From NCBI GenBank assembly GCA_964489445.1, contig CAZAYU010000001.1, positions 442,480-506,479 of the forward strand: DNA of 64,000 nt, written 5' to 3'. Below, in pieces: positions 2,980 through 64,000 of this stretch (position 1 is the first letter of the stretch; each line of letters opens with the position of its first letter). Both the position numbers and the translations under genes were made by a program. Origin of the DNA: an uncultured Planctomycetia bacterium. Its GTDB lineage: Bacteria; Omnitrophota; Gorgyraeia; Duberdicusellales; 4484-171. Under the pieces are notes generated by a model. The model was not told the DNA's origin. It searched no databases and saw nothing but the letters and a program-made list of their open reading frames with translations.

Positions 2980-4558
<1,579 letters not shown>

Positions 4559-15003: not shown

Positions 15004-15076
15004 CTATTCTCTACTCCGAACGTCTGCTACCATCTTCTTCTATCCTCTATCTTCTATTTCCTCAATCTCAACCTTT
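15004..15076 (-). repeat. Purine-rich (sense-strand) GAAGATGG-type leader repeat between argB and argD
   Basis: Sense strand reads GAGGAAATAGAAGATAGAGGATAGAAGAAGATGGTAGCAGACG. It is related to the leader repeats at 29.6, 45.2, 59.9 and 62.5 kb. Confidence 0.35.
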
Positions 15077-21957: not shown

Positions 21958-22061
21958 AAATTTATAATTAAAAATAAATTAGTATTACATATGTAGTATT
22001 TATTATTAGGTATATAGCATCGAGTATTGCGTACAATTGCTAAAACATAAAAACAGATCTT

Positions 22062-22125
22062 TTCTTTCTAAACCTCACCCTTAACCTTTCTTCTTCTCTT
22101 CTACTTTTTCCTTTAACCTTTAACC
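22062..22125 (-). repeat. Pyrimidine-rich (plus-strand) tract upstream of the patatin gene
   Basis: The region is CT-rich with repeated aacctt motifs. It shows weaker similarity to the leader repeat family. Confidence 0.25.
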
Positions 22126-23355
22126 TTTATCATTTTCTTCCTGCCCAACATCCACCGTATTCTCTTTACATATTTTAGCATAAGTAAACGCAAACTTTCG
22201 TATTTTTCTTTCCATAGTTTGATAATCTACATCTAGCAACCCGAACCTATGTTTAAAACCTTTATCCCATTCGAAATTATCCAATAACGACCACCAAAAA
22301 TATCCTCTGATATCAGCTCCTTTTTCCCTTGCTTTGACTAAGCTTTTTATGTGACTAATTAAGAAATCTTCGTAATAACCTTCTTCTTTCTCCGCTGTTC
22401 CGTTTTCCGTAACAATAATCGGCAGCTTAAATTTGCTTACTGCTGTAAGCACTTTAAGAAAACCTTGTGAATAAACATTCCAGCCAAGATGGTTCACTCT
22501 TTCCGGAGCATTTTGATAATTACAGCTTTCGCCCCACAAACCTTTCGATTTAACATACTCCTTGCAATAATAATTTACTCCGATAAAGTCCAAACTCCGA
22601 CGCCGACAAAGATAGTCAACCATCCAAAAATTAAAAGATTTATTGCGTAAAAAAGCAGAAAAGGAATTAGCCAAAAAATTACCTTCCGGGCAACCAGAAA
22701 ACACTCGAAAATGTTTAGCTAAAGAAATCTGCGGTTTAGCCAAAGACCCTTGATAAATGCTATTTATTTCTTGATATCCAACAAGATAAGCATTCAATAT
22801 ATTTTTTAAAGCTTTCCGGGCATCTACTAATGATTTTTTTCCCGGAGGCCAGATGCCAGATAAAAAACCGTTATAAATATAAACTAATGGCTCATTAAAA
22901 ATAAGCCAAGTATCGACTTTATCTTTCAAAGACCCAACTATTGTCTTTAGATAAGTAATAAAATAATCAACACTCTTAGGGCCAAGCCAGCCTCCTTCAC
23001 CCATAAACCAAAGTGGATTAGTGAAATGATGCAAAGTAACCACGGGCTTGATGCCTTGCTCCAGTAAACAATCTATAACTTTTTGATAATGAGCTATTTC
23101 TTGCTCTGAGACAATATTGCTGGCAGGATAAATTCGAGGCCACTCTACAGACAGCCTTACTGATTTAAGATTAAGTTCTCTGGCTAACTTGAAATCTTTT
23201 TCAAACAAATTGTAGTGATCACAAGCTCGCCCTGCTTCCTCTAACTTCTTCTCTTTTTCCCAGCTAAACCAATCCGAATTAAAATTACCTCCTTCGCATT
23301 GATATCCTGAAAGAGACGCACCCCATAAAAAAGAGGAAGGAAATTTAATCTGCAT
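22120..23355 (-). CDS. Glycoside hydrolase family 1 beta-glucosidase (no signal peptide)
   Basis: FLWGASLSGYQCEG, the acid/base LIFNEPL and the nucleophile IVTENG are all present. Confidence 0.85.
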   Translation of the reverse strand: MQIKFPSSFLWGASLSGYQCEGGNFNSDWFSWEKEKKLEEAGRACDHYNLFEKDFKLARELNLKSVRLSVEWPRIYPASNIVSEQEIAHYQKVIDCLLEQGIKPVVTLHHFTNPLWFMGEGGWLGPKSVDYFITYLKTIVGSLKDKVDTWLIFNEPLVYIYNGFLSGIWPPGKKSLVDARKALKNILNAYLVGYQEINSIYQGSLAKPQISLAKHFRVFSGCPEGNFLANSFSAFLRNKSFNFWMVDYLCRRRSLDFIGVNYYCKEYVKSKGLWGESCNYQNAPERVNHLGWNVYSQGFLKVLTAVSKFKLPIIVTENGTAEKEEGYYEDFLISHIKSLVKAREKGADIRGYFWWSLLDNFEWDKGFKHRFGLLDVDYQTMERKIRKFAFTYAKICKENTVDVGQEENDKG

Positions 23356-29589: not shown

Positions 29590-29730
29590 TACCCCTCGTT
29601 ATTGGTTAAATAATTAGTAGTTTTTATGATTAAAGATTACAAGATAAGAAATAATCATATCGTCTATCTTCCATCATCTATCGTCCATCGTTTTTTCACT
29701 TACCCCTTAATCCTTATCTCTTAATCCTAC
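29590..29730 (-). repeat. Purine-rich leader repeat carrying GATGGACGA / GATGATGGAAGATAG motifs, upstream of pgpA
   Basis: Minus-sense strand reads CGATGGACGATAGATGATGGAAGATAGACGATATG. It belongs to the same family as the 45.2, 59.9 and 62.5 kb leaders. Confidence 0.4.
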
Positions 29731-29770
29731 ATTATCCATCTTCCACCTTGAAGGTGGCAATTGGTTTTTC
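29731..29770 (-). repeat. 40-nt palindromic-core repeat, copy A, between pgsA and pgpA
   Basis: Sequence ATTATCCATCTTCCACCTTGAAGGTGGCAATTGGTTTTTC. It differs from copies B and C only by two single-T indels and contains the palindrome CCACCTTGAAGGTGG. Confidence 0.6.
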
Positions 29771-38959: not shown

Positions 38960-38999
38960 ATTATTCCATCTTCCACCTTGAAGGTGGCAATTTGGTTTT
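38960..38999 (-). repeat. 40-nt palindromic-core repeat, copy B, 18 nt upstream of the xseB start
   Basis: Sequence ATTATTCCATCTTCCACCTTGAAGGTGGCAATTTGGTTTT, identical over 40 nt to copy C. Confidence 0.65.
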
Positions 39000-40067: not shown

Positions 40068-40107
40068 ATTATTCCATCTTCCACCTTGAAGGTGGCAATT
40101 TGGTTTT
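40068..40107 (-). repeat. 40-nt palindromic-core repeat, copy C, 5 nt downstream of the xseA stop
   Basis: Sequence ATTATTCCATCTTCCACCTTGAAGGTGGCAATTTGGTTTT, a direct repeat of copy B lying 1108 bp away. Confidence 0.65.
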
Positions 40108-45198: not shown

Positions 45199-45240
45199 TT
45201 GATTATTATTTGATAACAGAATCGTTTCACCATTTTGATT

Positions 45241-45362
45241 CTCTTTTTATTTTTTCCTCTTCATCCTTCTCCCATCCTCTATCCTCCATCTCATTCTCCA
45301 TCTTCCTTCTTCCTTCTTCCATTCTCCATCATCCCTCGTCCATCTTCCGTCGTCCATCTTTC
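45241..45362 (-). repeat. Purine-rich leader repeat with the GATGGACGAGGGATGATGGAGAATGGAAGAAGG core
   Basis: The minus-sense strand contains two GATGGACGA(C/G)GG units. It spans the intergenic region upstream of the GT2 gene and the 3' tail of the GT4-GT26 ORF. Confidence 0.45.
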
Positions 45363-47378
45363 CCTAATCAGCTGTCTAGCCAGCAAATAAATAAATAAGG
45401 TATTGCTAACAACATAACGCTTCCAAAGACGTCTTGGTTCCTGAGATAAACGAAACAGCCATTCTAGCCCAAACGCCTGCATCCATTTCGGAGCTCGGAG
45501 AAGCGCACCAGCAATAAAATCAAATGCCGCACCCACAGTAATAATTACTGCCGGTATTTTATCTTTATGCTCAAAAGCCCAGATTTCCTGTTTAGGACAG
45601 CCAATGCCGATGAATAAAATATTTATTCCGGAATCAATTATCTTGCTTATAACATCTTTATCTTCAGCCTCATTCATCAACCGAAACGGTGGACTAAATA
45701 AATAAGCAATATCTAATCCAGGAAATTTAAGTTTCAAATTATTAGCCATTAACTTTAAAACTTTAGGTGTTGCTCCATAAAACCCAACTTTCAAATTTAG
45801 TTGTTCAGCCTTTTTACAAATTAACGGAGTTAAGTCTGGACCAGATACTTTTTGCGCATCTTTTAAACCTAAAAGTTTTAATGCCCAGACCAAAGCCATT
45901 CCATCGCAAGTTGCCAGTTCTGATGAATTAACGATTTTTTTAAAATAATCATCTCTGGCAGCCAAAGTTAATACATAAGCATTTTCAATACAGACAAAAC
46001 TTCCACTTTTTCTCTTAGACAGTTTAACTATTCTATTTACCGTATCTTGATAAGTAGTGTTATCAATACGCACTCCGGATAAATAACGATAAGTATCAGA
46101 ATTATTGTTAGCTACCAAACCTACCTGCTGATGTTTACTAATTAAATCCGTTGCTAAAACAACATATGCCTTAACTTGTGCTTCCATAGAAAAATTACTT
46201 AAAGCAAATTCTCTAGCTTCTTCTGAAAATTCTTTCTGCTTTTGCGAGTTGCTCAAAATATTCCTCAATGCTTCTTCAGCTTCTTTGCTGTTAGAAACCA
46301 CATATCCACTCTTTCCTTCTACTAAAGCCTCTCGGCAGCCTCCGGAATCCAGAGTCACAATCGGAATCCCACAGGCAGAGGCCTCAACTAAAGTATTCGG
46401 TAGATTATCGGCCTTACTTAAAGAAAGATAAACGTCGGCGGCGTTATAGCAAGCGGCTAAAATCTTTTCATCCTGGGTAAAGCCAACCTTAATAATTTTT
46501 ACGCCGGCAATTTTTGTAAATTCTTCGCCTCGATACCCGACAACCAAAACGGTTAAAGGAAAGTTTACTTTTTCCTTTAAATTTTTTATAACCTCCCAAG
46601 ACTCTCTCGCCCCTTTTCGCTGATCGTTTAGCTTAAAAGAAGACAACATGATGACTTTTTCTGATTTCCCAATCCCAAAAATGCTTCGCGCCGATTCCGT
46701 TAATCCCGGTTTAAATACAGATAAATTAACGGCTGTGGGTATTAATTCGCAGCGAAAATCACAAGTCAAAGGCGACTTCTCAACTATTTCTTTAAGCCAT
46801 TTTGAAGGAGAAACAAATACTAATTTATCTTTTAACCGTTGATATATTTTTTGCTTTCGCAGCCACAGAAAATGAGTGGTATCGAAAAATAATTCCGGAT
46901 AATCGTAAAGACGCGGACATTTTCCACAGCCCGTTTCCCATTTTTCGCACTCGTAAGAATAAGCGCAGTGCCCGGTTACCGCCCACATATCCGGAAGCCG
47001 CCAAATCAAAGGCGCTTTTTGCGAAAGAAAGGGTAAAATTCCTATCGATATATACCACCAGTGCAGGTTGCGTAAAATGATAATGTCGTTCCAATCATTA
47101 ACTAATTTTGAGCGGCGTAAGAAAAAAGAAGACGGATAACCAAAAGACTGCAATCCGAAAGCATTAAAGAATTTTCCGAACAAAGCATTAGGTAAATAGC
47201 CGAATTTTCCCGGCAGGATTGACGAACTATCATTTCCGGAATGTTCTTTTAAAGCGCATAAGGTATGGCTTGCGTATCCGGATTCCAATAACGCCTGATG
47301 CAGGCGGAAAGACTCTATGGAAGCTCCCCAGCGAATATCGGAAGCGTTAATGTGCAGAAAATTAATTTCTCTTAGCAT
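45291..47378 (-). CDS. Bifunctional glycosyltransferase with an N-terminal GT4 domain and a C-terminal GT26 (WecB/TagA/CpsF) domain
   Basis: The GT4 N-terminus is LHINASDIRWGAS and its E-x7-E region is GIPIVTLDSGGCREALVEGKSGYVV. The C-terminus has GT26 motifs (FYGATPKVL...GIGCPKQEIW). The last 25 or so codons run into a repeat and may not be translated. Confidence 0.75.
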   Translation of the reverse strand: MLREINFLHINASDIRWGASIESFRLHQALLESGYASHTLCALKEHSGNDSSSILPGKFGYLPNALFGKFFNAFGLQSFGYPSSFFLRRSKLVNDWNDIIILRNLHWWYISIGILPFLSQKAPLIWRLPDMWAVTGHCAYSYECEKWETGCGKCPRLYDYPELFFDTTHFLWLRKQKIYQRLKDKLVFVSPSKWLKEIVEKSPLTCDFRCELIPTAVNLSVFKPGLTESARSIFGIGKSEKVIMLSSFKLNDQRKGARESWEVIKNLKEKVNFPLTVLVVGYRGEEFTKIAGVKIIKVGFTQDEKILAACYNAADVYLSLSKADNLPNTLVEASACGIPIVTLDSGGCREALVEGKSGYVVSNSKEAEEALRNILSNSQKQKEFSEEAREFALSNFSMEAQVKAYVVLATDLISKHQQVGLVANNNSDTYRYLSGVRIDNTTYQDTVNRIVKLSKRKSGSFVCIENAYVLTLAARDDYFKKIVNSSELATCDGMALVWALKLLGLKDAQKVSGPDLTPLICKKAEQLNLKVGFYGATPKVLKLMANNLKLKFPGLDIAYLFSPPFRLMNEAEDKDVISKIIDSGINILFIGIGCPKQEIWAFEHKDKIPAVIITVGAAFDFIAGALLRAPKWMQAFGLEWLFRLSQEPRRLWKRYVVSNTLFIYLLARQLIRERWTTEDGRGMMENGRRKKEDGE

Positions 47379-47396
47379 TTTTTAATATTTTTGATA

Positions 47397-47564
47397 TCAA
47401 ACAATCAAGATTTTATCTTCATCGATAAAATCTTCTTTTCCTGACAATATAAATTTCATCGTTGCCTTTTCATCTTGTTCATAACGATGCTCGAGAAGAT
47501 CAAAATAATACCTATCTGCTCCGCCTCTTAGGTGATGAAACTTATTAACATTTAATACTTTCAT
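47397..47564 (-). pseudogene. N-terminal remnant of a GT4 glycosyltransferase gene
   Basis: A 55-codon ORF MKVLNVNKFHHLRGGADRYYFDL.. matches the canonical GT4 N-terminus (MKILHVNKFYYPxGGAE) and then terminates. It lies 18 nt upstream of the GT4-GT26 gene. Confidence 0.3.
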
Positions 47565-47598
47565 TAATCTCGCCTAGAAGTAACTACTCCGCATATAT

Positions 47599-59879: not shown

Positions 59880-60026
59880 CCTTCCTCCATTCTCCCCCTT
59901 CTAAGCCTCAACCTCATCCTTAACCTTTATTTTTCTCTTCTATTTCCATTTATTTTTCCTTGAACCTTTATCCTTTAACCTTCTTCTCCTATCGTCCTTC
60001 TTCCATTCTCCCTCGTCCATCGTTCT
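59880..60026 (-). repeat. Purine-rich leader repeat (GATGGACGAGGGAGAATGGAAGAAGGACG) upstream of the ligase/polymerase gene
   Basis: Belongs to the same repeat family as the 45.2 and 62.5 kb leaders. Confidence 0.45.
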
Positions 60027-61427
60027 TTAATACGCTCCTTTTCTCTTTAGCACCGCAGGTATTGTCCAAAGCATAATCTGTAAATCCAAGCGAAAAGACC
60101 AATTATTAATATACCATAAATCCCATTTAACCCATCTTCTAAATGTTAAATCACTTCTTCCTCTAACTTGAGAAAGTCCGGTCATTCCTGGGCGAATTGC
60201 CAAACGAGACATCTGCTCGCAAGCGTATTGACCTACTTCTCCAGAAGTAGGCGGCCGGGGCCCCACCAAACTCATATCTCCTTTTAACACGTTAAATAAC
60301 TGCGGTAGCTCATCTAGGCTCAAAACCCTCAAGTATCGACCGATTCGAGTAATTCGAGGATCTTTTTTAACCTTAAAAATAATTCCATCCTTTACTTCAT
60401 TCTTACTCAACAATCCTTTTTTTAATTCCTCGGCGTTTTTGACCATTGAACGAAATTTATAGAAATCAAATTCCTTTCCTTTTAACCCGGCACGCTTTTG
60501 AATATAAAATACACTTCCCTCTGAATCAAATTTAATTAATAACGCGATAACAATAAATAACGGAAAAAACACAATCAACAACAATAAAGAGATTAAAAAA
60601 TCAAATACTCTCTTTGCAATAAATTCGGAAGGATGGTGTTTCTTTTCTTTGTAAGAAATAAGCGGAATAAACCCTAAATAATTTATATCTAACACCGGTA
60701 ATGACTCTTCGAAGTCCTGAGGCACCACTTTTAGTCCTAAGTGCATTTTCTTCACTTCTTTAATTAACCCTGACACCGGCTGCCTTTCTTCGGAAGACAC
60801 GATAATAACTTCATCAACGAAAAACTTCTTAGCTATTTTAGTAAAATCATTTATTTTACCCAGCACTTTAAACTTATTTATTGGTTCTGTTGTTTGATCA
60901 TCTAAGAACCCCACCACTTTTAACCCTCTGAATGGATTCTTAATGATTTCTTCAAGAATAATCTTTCCCATGCTGCCTGCTCCAACAATCAACACATTGA
61001 TATTATGAAATCCCTTAGAAATCAACCGTCTTAGAACCAGTCGCTTTATAATCCGAAAACTACACAAGGTCAAACAAAGCATTAAAAAATTTCCGAAAAA
61101 TACAGACCGGGAAAAAAACTTATATTTAGAAAAGAAAATTACTGCAGCAATTAAGATTCCGGTATAAAAAACGCTAAGTACCACTTTCAATATTTCCTCA
61201 GAAATACTTAAGGAGCGATCAGTTGTGTATAAATTTTTATTCCGAAAAGAAACCCCGATAAAAAAAGCCCAAAGAATAAATATAAACAAGTAGCTAACCG
61301 GATTAGGTAAAACTCCTCCGGAAAAAAATCGATACCGAAACACAAACGGAAGATAGAAACTAACAGCCATTAAAATTAAATCCATTGTGATATATAATGG
61401 ATATATTTTGTTAAATGATTTATTCAT
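60027..61427 (-). CDS. Initiating polyprenyl-phosphate hexose-1-phosphate transferase (WbaP/PssY-like)
   Basis: N-terminal TM segments, a Rossmann domain (NVLIVGAGSMGK) and the C-terminal bacterial sugar transferase domain (DELPQLFNVLKGDMSLVGPRP). Confidence 0.85.
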   Translation of the reverse strand: MNKSFNKIYPLYITMDLILMAVSFYLPFVFRYRFFSGGVLPNPVSYLFIFILWAFFIGVSFRNKNLYTTDRSLSISEEILKVVLSVFYTGILIAAVIFFSKYKFFSRSVFFGNFLMLCLTLCSFRIIKRLVLRRLISKGFHNINVLIVGAGSMGKIILEEIIKNPFRGLKVVGFLDDQTTEPINKFKVLGKINDFTKIAKKFFVDEVIIVSSEERQPVSGLIKEVKKMHLGLKVVPQDFEESLPVLDINYLGFIPLISYKEKKHHPSEFIAKRVFDFLISLLLLIVFFPLFIVIALLIKFDSEGSVFYIQKRAGLKGKEFDFYKFRSMVKNAEELKKGLLSKNEVKDGIIFKVKKDPRITRIGRYLRVLSLDELPQLFNVLKGDMSLVGPRPPTSGEVGQYACEQMSRLAIRPGMTGLSQVRGRSDLTFRRWVKWDLWYINNWSFRLDLQIMLWTIPAVLKRKGAY

Positions 61428-61434
61428 GTAAACA

Positions 61435-62493
61435 TTAAGCCTTTATTTTTTGCTTGGTGCAGATTTCATCAACAATTTGATGGATATTATAAGCATACTC
61501 CCATTGAGGATAATCTTGTTTGAATTTATTAACGTTCGATATGTACCAGATATGGTCACCTTTACGGTTTTGTTCGGAATAATGGATATTTGCTTTTTTG
61601 CTGAATGCTGCCTCAAAGCAGATCACTGCTTCATTCATTGAAATATTAGAATACCGGCTTCCTCCGATATTATACACCTCGCCACAGCGAGGATGCTGAT
61701 AAAAATGCCAAAACGCATTTACTAAATCAAAAGAGTGGATATTATCACGTAACTGTTTCCCCTTATAGCCATAGATGTTATAAGCTCGCTCTTGCGCTAC
61801 GCACTTAGCTAAATAAGCTAAAAATCCATGGAGTTCAGCCCCTTTATGCATCGGTCCAGTCATACACCCTCCGCGAAAACTAACTGTTTTAAGATCAAAG
61901 TATTTTCCGTATTCCTGGACTAAAATATCCGCTGCCACTTTAGAAGCTCCAAATAAACTGTGTAAGCAATTGTCTATCGACATGCTTTCATCTATGCCAT
62001 TGTAAAAAGTATGCTCTTCGGGAAGCTCCCAACGAGTTTCAAGCTCAATTAACGGAAGCTGATTTGGCTTATCACCATAAACTTTATTAGTCGAAGTAAA
62101 AATAAATACTCCATCAGGCGAATATTTACGAAAATTCTCTAATAAATTCAAAGTTCCGTTAGCATTAACTTCAAAATCAGTAAACGGTTCTCTAGCCGCC
62201 CAATCATGAGAAGGCTGTGCTGCAGTATGAATAATTAAGTCAAAATTAAACTCTTTAAATATTTTTTCAATATCTGACTTATTGCGAATATCACAAGAAT
62301 AATGATTATACTTATCCTTAAATCCTTGTTTTAAACTATCAATTATTTCTTTAGTGCTGGCTTCTTGTCCAAAAAAATAAGCCCTTAAATCATTATCTAT
62401 GCCAATAACTTGAAATTCTTTATCAATGAAAAACTTTACCGCTTCTGAACCAATCAACCCCCCAGAACCGGTGACCAACACTGTTTTTTCCAT
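61435..62493 (-). CDS. NAD-dependent sugar-nucleotide epimerase/dehydratase (extended SDR)
   Basis: [13 protein letters not shown] is present, along with the YxxxK catalytic region ([11 protein letters not shown]). Confidence 0.75.
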
Positions 62494-62620
62494 TTTATTC
62501 CCTTTAACCTTTATCCCTCATCCTTCTCCCTTCATCTTTCATCTATCATCCCTCGTCCATCATCTTTCTTCCTTCGTCTTTCTCCCGCCTTTTCCCTTTT
62601 TCTACTTCACCCAACCTTAA
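62494..62620 (-). repeat. Purine-rich leader repeat (GATGATGGACGAGGGATGATAGATGAAAGATGAAGGGAGAAGGATGAGGG) upstream of the epimerase gene
   Basis: Belongs to the same repeat family, and the minus-sense strand carries several ARGGATG motifs. Confidence 0.45.
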
Positions 62621-62663: not shown

Positions 62664-63437
62664 TTAAAATTTAGTTTTAACGTAGTCTTCGAAAAGTAAT
62701 ATTTTCTTTGAATCGTTCGGTTTAACAATAAAAGGCAAAAGATCTTTAGATAGCTGTTCAAAATTAAGACCCCTGCACTTATCTAATAATTTTTGTTTAA
62801 GGTCGAAAGAATCATTTATGTTAATTTTCTGTTTCAAATATTCCATATCCGGCAATGTCTTTGCGTGCAAAAAAACTATATCAAAAAAATCTCTTCCCAT
62901 CGGACGCTTCCGAGTAAAAACAGCAAGTATCTTTTGAGAAAGCAACAAATCACCAGGAACACAAAGAATACGAGTAAAAACTTCAAACTTATTTATCAAT
63001 ATTTTCTCCGGATTATATTTATAATCCTGTGGCTCTGCGTCCAATTGAATAACTAATTTAGCATCTTTGTGTCCTGTAATGCCTGCCTGTTTAAGAATAT
63101 CCGAAAATTTAAAATGGCATACATAAGCCCCTTTAAATGTTGTTTTTATTTCAAGCTTATACCCTTCAAGCTCAAGCCTTTTTTTTATTACTCCTGCAAG
63201 TTCAAGAAAATCATCTTTAGACATTGCTAAATTATCAAAATCCAAGTCTTCAGAAAATCTGGTATTACCATGAACGATCTTAATCGCAGTACCGCCCATA
63301 AAAATTAGCTTATCAAGATACTTTGAATCATAAATAATTTCTAATATTTTATACTGTAGGTACTCCCGTAGAATATTTTTTTTGAACGATTTAAGATTAT
63401 CGGGATAAAATTCGCTAAGCTGTTCGATATTAATCAT
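62664..63437 (-). CDS. AbiEii/AbiGii-family nucleotidyltransferase toxin of a type IV TA system
   Basis: LIFMGGTAIKIVHGNTRFSEDLDFD matches the AbiEii/DUF1814 signature (GGTAL...RFSEDLDF). Confidence 0.75.
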   Translation of the reverse strand: MINIEQLSEFYPDNLKSFKKNILREYLQYKILEIIYDSKYLDKLIFMGGTAIKIVHGNTRFSEDLDFDNLAMSKDDFLELAGVIKKRLELEGYKLEIKTTFKGAYVCHFKFSDILKQAGITGHKDAKLVIQLDAEPQDYKYNPEKILINKFEVFTRILCVPGDLLLSQKILAVFTRKRPMGRDFFDIVFLHAKTLPDMEYLKQKININDSFDLKQKLLDKCRGLNFEQLSKDLLPFIVKPNDSKKILLFEDYVKTKF

Positions 63438-64000
63438 TTTTTAAATATTTTATTAGCTTGTCCATTCTGGCTGATAATCTTTTTTGCCCAAACCTTTTAA
63501 GATAACTACTCATCTTTTGTTTATCTATGTTTTCCCAGAATATTTCTCTGTTAAGCCGTAGCTCTAAAAAGTCTTTTTTTGTCTCATAACGAGGATTTAA
63601 ATATAAAAAATCGAGTATCGCTTTTTCAAAATCAGCTATCTTATAGATACCTTTATTATCCTTAACTATCTTATACCCAAAAAATAACTCCGGCTTAACC
63701 GCCTGATAATAAAACCGGCCTATTTTAGTGCTAAACTGATATTTTCGCTTTGTAGAAATAGATGTAACAGCGTAAACACTCTCAGGAATTAGATTATAAT
63801 GGGATAGGGCCATTTCAAGAGATACATATGAAGGTGTATATATGCGATTAGCAATACAATAAAGAATGCTGTCATTAATTTTAGTACCCTTAAAGACATA
63901 GTATCCTTTAACTATTTTTTGAATATATCCATTATCCTGCCATTCATTCAACCTTCTTCGGTAAAAATTAGCATCAAGCTGTTTAATATCCGAAAGAGAA
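63430..64000 (-). CDS. AbiEi-family antitoxin / transcriptional regulator, partial with its N-terminus beyond the window
   Basis: The reading frame stays open to the window edge. RRRLNEWQDNGYIQKIVKGYYVF matches the AbiEi N-terminal wHTH motif (L..L...G.L.R..RG.Y). It overlaps the AbiEii gene by 8 nt. Confidence 0.6.
   Translation of the reverse strand, partial: SLSDIKQLDANFYRRRLNEWQDNGYIQKIVKGYYVFKGTKINDSILYCIANRIYTPSYVSLEMALSHYNLIPESVYAVTSISTKRKYQFSTKIGRFYYQAVKPELFFGYKIVKDNKGIYKIADFEKAILDFLYLNPRYETKKDFLELRLNREIFWENIDKQKMSSYLKRFGQKRLSARMDKLIKYLKND

Follow-up and report, generated by a model that had tools for sequence, protein, structure and literature searches.

Degenerate heptanucleotide arrays between co-directional genes of an uncultivated, Omnitrophota-like genome

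Introduction

What kind of element is a purine-rich sequence that recurs in front of several polysaccharide genes of an uncultivated bacterium? The question is raised by a 64,000-nt stretch of contig CAZAYU010000001.1 (referred to here as the window), in which an earlier note had picked out three intergenic leaders, upstream of a GT2 gene, a ligase (Wzy_C) gene and an epimerase gene, with a common core of about 25 nt. Sites for post-transcriptional regulation of the CsrA/RsmA type, a mobile short repeat and remnants of duplication were offered as explanations. The analysis reported here leads elsewhere. The core is two adjacent units of degenerate heptamer tandem arrays and not a stand-alone motif, and it is likely, in our judgement, that these arrays are driven by slippage and filtered by selection, as simple-sequence DNA that is tolerated inside operons.

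A core built of seven-nucleotide units

The three strings quoted for the leaders were found in place on the minus strand, which is the sense strand of these genes, and a core common to the leaders (arrays d, e and f in Table 1) is real. Its length had been set too high, as the sequence that all three share exactly, GATGGACGAGGGA, measures 13 nt. It has three exact occurrences in the window, all on the sense strand, and near copies are found at one mismatch (in array d) and at two mismatches (two copies; Table 1). The earlier note had allowed that the motif might be no more frequent than base composition predicts; at two or fewer mismatches there are 7 matches against 0.55 expected, a number that was reached in 0 of 100 shuffles. 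Pairs of arrays share more than the core. Arrays d and f have 17 nt in common, while d and e share 13 + 14 nt split by an exact 7-nt indel, the heads of the two being identical, GATGGACGAGGGA[TGATGGA]GAATGGAAGAAGGA, save for one exact 7-nt unit found only in d.

A tandem periodicity of 7 nt, overlooked in the earlier note, is the organising principle of these sequences. On the sense strand array d reads GATGGAC GACGGAA GATGGAC GAGGGAT GATGGAG AATGGAA GAAGGAA GAAGGAA GATGGAG and so on. The array unit is GGANGAN or, more broadly, RGAYGAN, and grades into A-rich GGAAGAA and GGTTAAA variants. Tandem Repeats Finder (TRF) reported periods of 7, 14 and 28 at 45259-45365 and a period of 7 or 14 at 15039, 22110, 29658, 29705, 59958 and 62513. 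When the whole window was scanned for self-matches at lags of 3-15, extended signal appeared only at 7 and 14, barring one 53-nt stretch at lag 6. Successive GGA triplets are most often 7 nt apart (16 of 41), and spacings of 14 and 28 form further peaks. Purine-rich tracts (>=85%) are confined to the minus strand of the window, and the long ones coincide exactly with the arrays, which mostly measure 70-200 nt each. Six arrays lie within the window and a seventh just beyond its right end. What they display are the features of heptanucleotide repeats: a 7-nt unit repeated head to tail, many dispersed and mainly intergenic loci, and length change by whole units.

How much of the sharing the units themselves account for can be read from simulation. 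A 13-nt word common to d, e and f arose in 0 of 2000 simulations based on composition or on a first-order Markov model, in 1 of 2000 under a heptad position-weight model and in 2.75% of those in which the arrays were rebuilt from randomly drawn observed heptads. Because of these rates we regard the sharing of the core as real. Base composition falls far short of explaining it, and a small vocabulary of 7-nt units common to the arrays accounts for most of it.

Placement within operons

All seven arrays lie between co-directional genes. In five of the seven, the upstream edge of the array lies either inside the 3' end of the preceding gene or no more than 5 nt away from it; arrays a, e and f extend up to the next start codon and b, c and d stop 50-100 nt short of it. 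The sequence described as the leader of the GT2 gene is there, but it is not purely a leader, as it overlaps the 3' end of the gene before it: a predicted open reading frame (ORF) of 695 aa enters array d by 76 nt (45291-45366) and ends, with the tail RERWTTEDGRGMMENGRRKKEDGE, at a stop codon encoded by the array (45291-45293). The purine-rich tract of array e extends to ~59830, into the predicted 5' end of the Wzy_C ORF. Among heptad arrays of any sequence between co-directional long ORFs (all loci examined, n=47), the sense strand carries more G than C in 33 and the reverse holds in 12, with two tied.

Units related to the core had also been noted upstream of pgpA, upstream of argD and within a 40-nt palindrome; they are present, in the last case next to the palindrome. 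Arrays lie at argB>argD, pgsA>pgpA and GH1>patatin as well, several spacers of the extended polysaccharide cluster are without one, and the frequency of arrays in the polysaccharide part of the window is not above that elsewhere. Since arrays accompany other types of genes and polysaccharide spacers can be free of them, the link to polysaccharide genes is incidental and not specific, and the picture of the leaders as a feature of polysaccharide genes falls away.

Genomic setting and neighbouring features

The window has a G+C content of 34.7%, and its plus strand is strongly skewed (C 21%, G 14%). Nearly all long ORFs are on the minus strand, and the GC skew is uniform across the window, even beneath a plus-strand gene. 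The ArgD protein encoded in the window shares 64-71% identity with proteins named Candidatus Omnitrophota/Omnitrophica, and the related loci that were retrieved belong to Omnitrophota metagenome-assembled genomes (MAGs); by these comparisons the host genome appears to be Omnitrophota-like and uncultivated. The species is also present in several metagenome assemblies, with contigs of up to 509 kb. The junction that holds array d lies within a long lipopolysaccharide (LPS)/polysaccharide region with genes for a heptosyltransferase, GT87, Wzy_C, Bac_transf, an epimerase, NeuB and others. The positions of the arrays and of neighbouring features are collected in Table 1.

Table 1. Heptad arrays, core sequences and neighbouring features. 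Positions are those of the window except for the seventh array, which is placed by contig.
Feature	Position	Strand	Description
Array a	15023..15076	-	Short degenerate array filling the argB>argD spacer; GGATAGA-type units and GAAGATGG
Array b	22058..22137	-	At or just past the GH1 3' end, upstream of the patatin/cNMP gene; GGTTAAA in 2.9 perfect copies
Array c	29644..29749	-	pgsA (CDP-alcohol phosphatidyltransferase) > pgpA; directly after one copy of the 40-nt hairpin element
Array c, sub-arrays	29658-29691; 29705-29728	-	GACGATA-type and TTAAGG-type, respectively; TRF
Core variant GATGGACGATAGA	29677-29689	-	In array c; two mismatches
Array d	45243..45366	-	About 17 degenerate heptads; GT1/WecG-fusion gene > GT2 gene
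Exact core GATGGACGAGGGA	45332..45344	-	In array d
Near copy GATGGACGACGGA	45346-45358	-	In array d, 14 nt upstream of the exact core; one mismatch
Array e	59880..60028	-	Stop of Bac_transf sugar transferase > Wzy_C (O-antigen-ligase-like) gene
Exact core GATGGACGAGGGA	60009..60021	-	In array e; 5 nt past the stop codon of the upstream gene
Array f	62485..62620	-	AbiEii toxin gene > NAD-dependent epimerase gene; reaches the epimerase start codon (AAAGGGAATAAAATG)
Near copy of core	62514-62526		Two mismatches
Exact core GATGGACGAGGGA	62549..62561	-	In array f
Seventh array	Just past the right end of the window (L057 340-680; L092 9150-9390; L093 2720-3140)		~190-370 nt; second Wzy_C gene > AbiEi
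40-nt element AAAACCAAATTGCCACCTTCAAGGTGGAAGATGGAATAAT	29730-29769; 38960-38999; 40068-40107	-	Three copies
12-codon ORF ATGGTGAAACGATTCTGTTATCAAATAATAATCAAATGA	45199-45237	-	Upstream of the GT2 gene
Short ORF MKVLNVNKFHHLRGGADRYYFDLLEH...	47379-47598	-	Called as a 55-aa gene in contig L001 (635-802)
Imperfect inverted repeat, 31 nt	47387-47417 / 47424-47454		In the spacer of the short ORF
AbiEi/AbiEii pair	62664-63951	-	Toxin-antitoxin genes

Some neighbours of the arrays deserve mention in their own right. The 12-codon ORF next to array d has a TGA stop overlapping the ATG start of GT2 (ATGA), and the GT2 start has no Shine-Dalgarno (SD) sequence; translational coupling of the short ORF to GT2 is possible. 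A second short ORF, possibly a gene fragment, encodes what looks like a GT4-type glycosyltransferase cut down to its N-terminal stub. The AbiE toxin-antitoxin pair lies within the polysaccharide region with a heptad array on each side. Of the three copies of the 40-nt element, two are identical and one matches at 85%, and each stands 20-45 nt past a stop codon (of pgsA, of a gene for 324 aa and of xseA). The element folds into a CCACCU/AGGUGG hairpin followed by heptad-like GAAGATGGA. As it has no T-run, it is not a classical terminator, and it may be a repetitive extragenic palindrome (REP)-like element or a protein-binding element.

Structure and sequence signals of the arrays

The arrays are predicted to be free of structure as RNA. 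Minimum free energies (MFEs) of d, e and f came to -5.5, -3.8 and 0 kcal/mol over 130-150 nt, with z-scores near zero, as compared with -24 to -30 kcal/mol for the window's ordinary spacers at equal length. Folding had been suggested as a check for hairpins that present GGA in their loops, and the predicted folds of the three arrays contain none. No array has a G3 motif, and folding with G-quadruplex energies changes nothing. Within the arrays no promoter-like or terminator-like sites were found, while stop codons occur in all three frames of every one of them. A search of the window against Rfam 15 gave only a tRNA at the gathering threshold and no match to any array at E<=5; for arrays from metagenomes (see below), only tRNAs were found, together with a sub-threshold match to an archaeal snoRNA model in contig L087 (22.5 bits against a gathering threshold of 55, E=0.13).

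Short regulatory words give a similar picture. The motif ARGGATG, taken in the earlier note as a match to the CsrA/RsmA consensus, occurs 20 times in the window where 15.1 +/- 3.7 are expected and so is not enriched. SD-like 4-mers reach 9-11 per 100 nt in d and e, which is 7-9x denser than the genome-wide figure of 1.3; compared with shuffles of the arrays there is no excess beyond composition, and array f lies below its shuffles. Leaders of polysaccharide gene clusters have a conserved short element called JUMPstart/ops. It was rejected as an identity for the arrays: its exact sequence, GGCGGTAG, is absent from the window, matches at one mismatch number 20, little more than the shuffle mean of 14.4 +/- 3.5 (a count of 20 was reached in 6 of 100 shuffles), and a single one of these matches, GGCGGGAG in array f, is inside an array. 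The proposal of a mobile short repeat, in the sense of a miniature inverted-repeat transposable element (MITE), was also given up. The arrays have no defined ends, their ends and lengths differ at every locus, and no pair of terminal inverted repeats accompanies them.

Copying between loci and variation within the species

Some segments have been copied between loci. Arrays b and e have in common a module of ~85 nt, which forms the middle part of e, with an alignment score of 81.5 that was reached in none of 400 trials, whether the null was a heptad vocabulary or a second-order Markov model. Alignments of d with e, d with f and e with f are above the Markov null (p = 0.003-0.022) and marginal against the vocabulary null (p = 0.03-0.14). 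Homology among these three beyond their common vocabulary was therefore set aside, b and e being the only clear-cut pair. A further case is a run of 26 identical nt, GACGAAGGAAGAAAGATGATGGACGA, shared by array f and the short allele of the seventh array, which flank the AbiEi/AbiEii cassette on either side. The cassette looks as if it had landed in an array or had been duplicated with one. On the evidence of the b-e module and of these 26 nt, the suggestion of remnants of duplication holds for particular segments, and what likeness remains is common vocabulary.

Contigs of the same species show how the arrays vary at present. Array d is identical in 6 contigs, e in 5 and f in 6, with no variation in any that was retrieved. 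The seventh array, which carries an internal direct repeat of ~40 nt, AAAGGTTCAAGGATACCGRAAGAAGACTAAGGTT, at both its ends, has three alleles. Two of them differ by an indel of 21 nt, or three heptads, and the third is shorter and linked to a different Wzy_C variant. An arrangement without AbiE, as a sign of excision between f and the seventh array, was not seen among 18 contigs.

Relatives and wider occurrence

In Omnitrophota relatives with the same order of the arg operon (65-71% ArgD identity), the argB>argD spacer measures 4-30 nt and is free of repeats. The motif that the earlier note would have expected to persist in close relatives with conserved gene order is thus missing from these spacers. 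The closest relative found (76% identity) does have an array at argB>argD, but one made of AAGGTT and AAGTTNT units, and an ACTCAAT array is located in the neighbouring spacer. Heptad arrays of other relatives also differ in sequence (AAAATTN in L007, GTATATA/GTATGTG in L019). Across 196 kb of Omnitrophota loci and the window, 12 of 13 tandem arrays (>=2.8 copies) have a period of 7, 14 or 28. As the arrays of relatives keep the 7-nt period but differ in sequence or presence, the propensity to form 7-nt arrays is a trait of the lineage, while a given motif at a given junction is not conserved.

Two loci of these relatives stand apart. One Omnitrophota MAG (contig L012, ~3120-3380) is an exception to the short argB>argD spacers, with an unrelated hairpin-like insert of ~190 nt whose long, imperfectly complementary arms read GGTTAGGGTAACGAAGCCCGTATCG ... 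CGAAACGGGCATCGTAACCGTTACCC, which is another kind of intergenic element at the same junction. In a relative of 69% identity (L019, 15665-15724) the vocabulary of the window arrays reappears as the run GGATGAA GGATAAA GGAAGAA GGAAGAA, in this case within the 3' part of a called lysA-like gene, where it is translated as KRMKDKGRRKK.

The heptads are found well beyond the Omnitrophota. A 20-mer that fits all three cores, GATGGACGAGGGAKRATRGA, matched 72 metagenome stretches with a GC content of 34-72%, a set that includes ~12 chance matches in coding sequence and the window's own locus f (L057). Of these stretches 48 have at least three phased RGAYGAN units, a typical run being GGACGAG GGACGAA GGACGAT AGACGAT GGATGAT, and after many of the metagenomic runs the same heptads continue in inverted orientation (e.g., L040, L079 and L084). 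The contigs that bear the motif are rich in further heptad arrays of other sequences: in 398 kb of them, 133 arrays have period 7, 32 have period 8 and 8 have period 6. In viral contigs, 64 stretches carry three GGACGAN units in tandem. A 387-kb contig (L038) was assigned to the Sedimentisphaerales (Planctomycetota) through a radical-SAM protein that is 87% identical to proteins so named. Among its relatives the 3' end of the same gene holds GGACGAN, GATGCTC or other heptads, and the C-termini of the proteins differ accordingly. Mosaics of GAATTCG, GATGCTC, CGAAATN, CAGGTTA and AGACTNA were seen in Sedimentisphaerales (L038 12060-12150, L098 2770-2830 and L099 2790-3010), where they recast the last 5-20 residues of this conserved protein.

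Comparison with known heptanucleotide repeats

Among the long simple-sequence repeats (LSSRs) of bacteria, those with heptanucleotide units are the commonest, and they have been proposed to originate by polymerase slippage (Mrazek, 2007, as summarised in PMC4679880). The window arrays resemble the LSSRs and the short tandemly repeated repetitive (STRR) sequences of cyanobacteria in having tandem 7-nt units, many dispersed and mostly intergenic loci, several unrelated heptads per genome, a copy number that changes in unit steps and no established function. The cyanobacterial STRR heptamers were reportedly described by Mazel and co-workers in 1990, and the units of STRR1-3 are CCCCAGT, TTGGTCA and CAACAGT. 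Those of the window are GGANGAN or GGTTAAA; they are far more degenerate, form mosaics of several heptad types and belong to an uncultivated host of the Planctomycetes-Verrucomicrobia-Chlamydiae (PVC) group. By their sequences the window arrays are an analogue of STRR1-3 and not a member.

Two further families invite comparison. In Xanthomonas and Nostoc, G-rich heptamers lie between aligned ORFs, near stop codons and on the sense strand (Rehm et al., 2015, PMC4692102). These GGGNATC repeats are, like the window arrays, G-rich heptamers common to distant phyla, and the window arrays lie in the same kind of position. Theirs are GGG tracts that prefer four units and form G-quadruplexes, whereas the window arrays have GG tracts and no predicted quadruplex. 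TAACTGA direct repeats occur between genes of marine Beggiatoaceae, cyanobacteria and Bacteroidetes (MacGregor, 2015, PMC4679880), and here too one tandem heptamer family appears in several phyla, in sense orientation, upstream of the start codons of genes with unrelated functions. CsrA, S1 and Csp have been discussed as their readers, which is unproven (PMC4679880). TAACTGA sets have another sequence and are short, with 2-6 perfect copies located right at the ribosome-binding site; the window arrays, in contrast, are long and degenerate, and their position follows the stop of the upstream gene more closely than the start of the downstream one. Nostoc heptamers near start codons affect expression in reporter assays, and their binding partner has not been identified (10.1101/2022.06.06.494920).

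CsrA/RsmA sites and CsrB-type sponge RNAs have multiple GGA motifs in an RNA leader in common with the arrays. They differ in their hairpin presentation, consensus enrichment and conservation, and in a promoter and terminator of their own, none of which the arrays possess. A literature search, which was not exhaustive, gave no earlier description of heptamer or tandem repeats in Omnitrophota or Planctomycetes/Planctomycetota. The arrays fit the heptanucleotide repeat class in period, dispersal, placement and unit-step variation, while host lineage, unit sequence, degeneracy, mosaic build and lack of quadruplex potential set them apart within it. The observation made in the earlier note was real, but its interpretation was largely off target.

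Origin and possible functions of the arrays

The data above show in part how the arrays behave: their length changes by steps of 7 nt, their turnover among relatives is rapid, and portions of them are copied between loci. The stepwise change is seen in the exact 7-nt indel between d and e and in the 21-nt indel between strains at the seventh array, and the quick turnover follows from the differences at argB>argD among relatives and from the variable heptads at the gene ends of Sedimentisphaerales. As to mechanism, replication slippage or unequal recombination, with a preference for 7 nt, is the probable source of the arrays and of their growth. They would start just past, or over, a stop codon, where insertions would be harmless. 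Their persistence in sense orientation probably means that operon expression is left undisturbed, since sense arrays are unstructured, free of terminators, C-poor (and so poor Rho-loading sites) and supplied with stops in all frames. The SD-like GGAG/AGGA words in them would come about by composition alone. We take it that the arrays are not a dedicated control site of polysaccharide genes and have, at most, a non-specific effect on downstream translation. Most of the doubt in the overall picture, which we hold to be likely, concerns whether the arrays are functionally neutral.

Several points weigh against it. Both the co-transcription and the neutrality of the arrays are what we infer. The sense-strand bias cannot be separated from a leading-strand bias in the window, because nearly all genes are on one strand and the skew persists under the plus-strand gene. 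Arrays d, e and f do not vary in any of the same-species contigs sampled and their units are imperfect, so present-day slippage at these three must be slow. Lastly, the same heptads appear across genomes of 34-72% GC and at least two phyla, where purely local slippage predicts otherwise; this may be a sign of sequence-specific selection, of a shared generating process or of spread by horizontal transfer. The recurrence across such different compositions is the main unexplained fact, and it keeps a sequence-specific reader or writer alive as an outside chance.

Such a reader could take the form of a periodic binding platform, in which an oligomeric RNA or DNA binder reads the heptads in 7-nt register and sets the expression of the flanking genes. 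Parallels for RNA are the ring proteins HutP, which binds NAG triplets every 7 nt, and TRAP; for DNA there is the omega repressor of pSM19035, a ribbon-helix-helix protein that forms polymers on 7-bp heptads in direct and inverted orientation. The phasing of GGA at 7 nt, the pairing of direct with inverted runs in many metagenomic copies, the sense-strand bias and the return of the RGAYGAN vocabulary in unrelated genomes and viral contigs would all suit a platform. We nevertheless consider it unlikely, as no candidate protein was found, the arrays are not conserved at orthologous junctions, and the units in the window are highly degenerate in genomes where many other heptads form arrays too. 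Given this degeneracy and the many other heptad sequences, a mutational process specific to length fits better than one sequence-specific reader. A wider form of the idea, in which RGAYGAN heptads are a sequence-specific system of PVC-group bacteria (Omnitrophota and Sedimentisphaerales) and viruses, made or read by a conserved factor with a 7-nt register, seems to us a shade less probable still; if true, the mosaic arrays at gene ends would give these uncultivated lineages a hitherto undescribed level of control within operons or of genome organisation. The predicted lack of structure, the density of SD-like words in d and e and the reach of a, e and f to the start codon would also accord with a ribosome relay or translational enhancer, an unstructured purine-rich spacer that would hold terminating or free 30S subunits and deliver them to the next start codon, so that the downstream cistron is translated efficiently despite the length of the spacer, and a like role has been proposed for TAACTGA repeats and Nostoc heptamers (PMC4679880; 10.1101/2022.06.06.494920). 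This appears quite improbable when the density is exactly what base composition gives and is lower in f, b, c and d end well before the start codon, and relatives manage with spacers of 4-30 nt.

The two explanations that tie the arrays to the polysaccharide genes fare worse. As contingency loci for phase variation, or as sites of cassette exchange, the arrays would shift frames at gene ends by unit change or recombine polysaccharide cassettes. Four core-bearing arrays (d, e, f and the seventh) are indeed in the polysaccharide region, some arrays overlap gene ends, one of the three alleles between Wzy_C and AbiEi is tied to a different Wzy_C variant, and 26 identical nt surround the AbiE cassette. 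We give this little credence, however, as imperfect units imply slow switching and no contig sampled shows a change in d, e or f, the overlaps touch only tails past catalytic domains, no AbiE-less arrangement was seen, and arrays are no commoner in the polysaccharide part. Post-transcriptional sites of the CsrA/RsmA type in polysaccharide leaders, the reading to which the GGA words (for example AAGGATG and AGGGATG, with two occurrences in each of d, e and f) had given rise, we regard as very improbable indeed. The consensus is not enriched, GGA-presenting hairpins and Rfam matches are lacking, the motif is not conserved at orthologous junctions, and arrays precede argD, pgpA and the patatin gene just as well; nor did tblastn find a csrA gene in the window and the 727 kb examined, which are a part of the genome only.

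Significance

As a regulatory discovery the finding carries low weight, as the evidence points away from a dedicated polysaccharide control element. The array sequences can be used for binding or reporter tests, and the recurrence of the same heptads across phyla and in viruses, as with GGGNATC and TAACTGA, keeps open the question of why 7-nt units dominate the tandem repeats of bacteria. For the biology of these organisms, what emerges is that fast-evolving mosaic heptad arrays are abundant in uncultivated Omnitrophota and Sedimentisphaerales, where they extend or rewrite C-termini and inflate the spacers of operons, and that they matter for gene calling and strain typing in these lineages.

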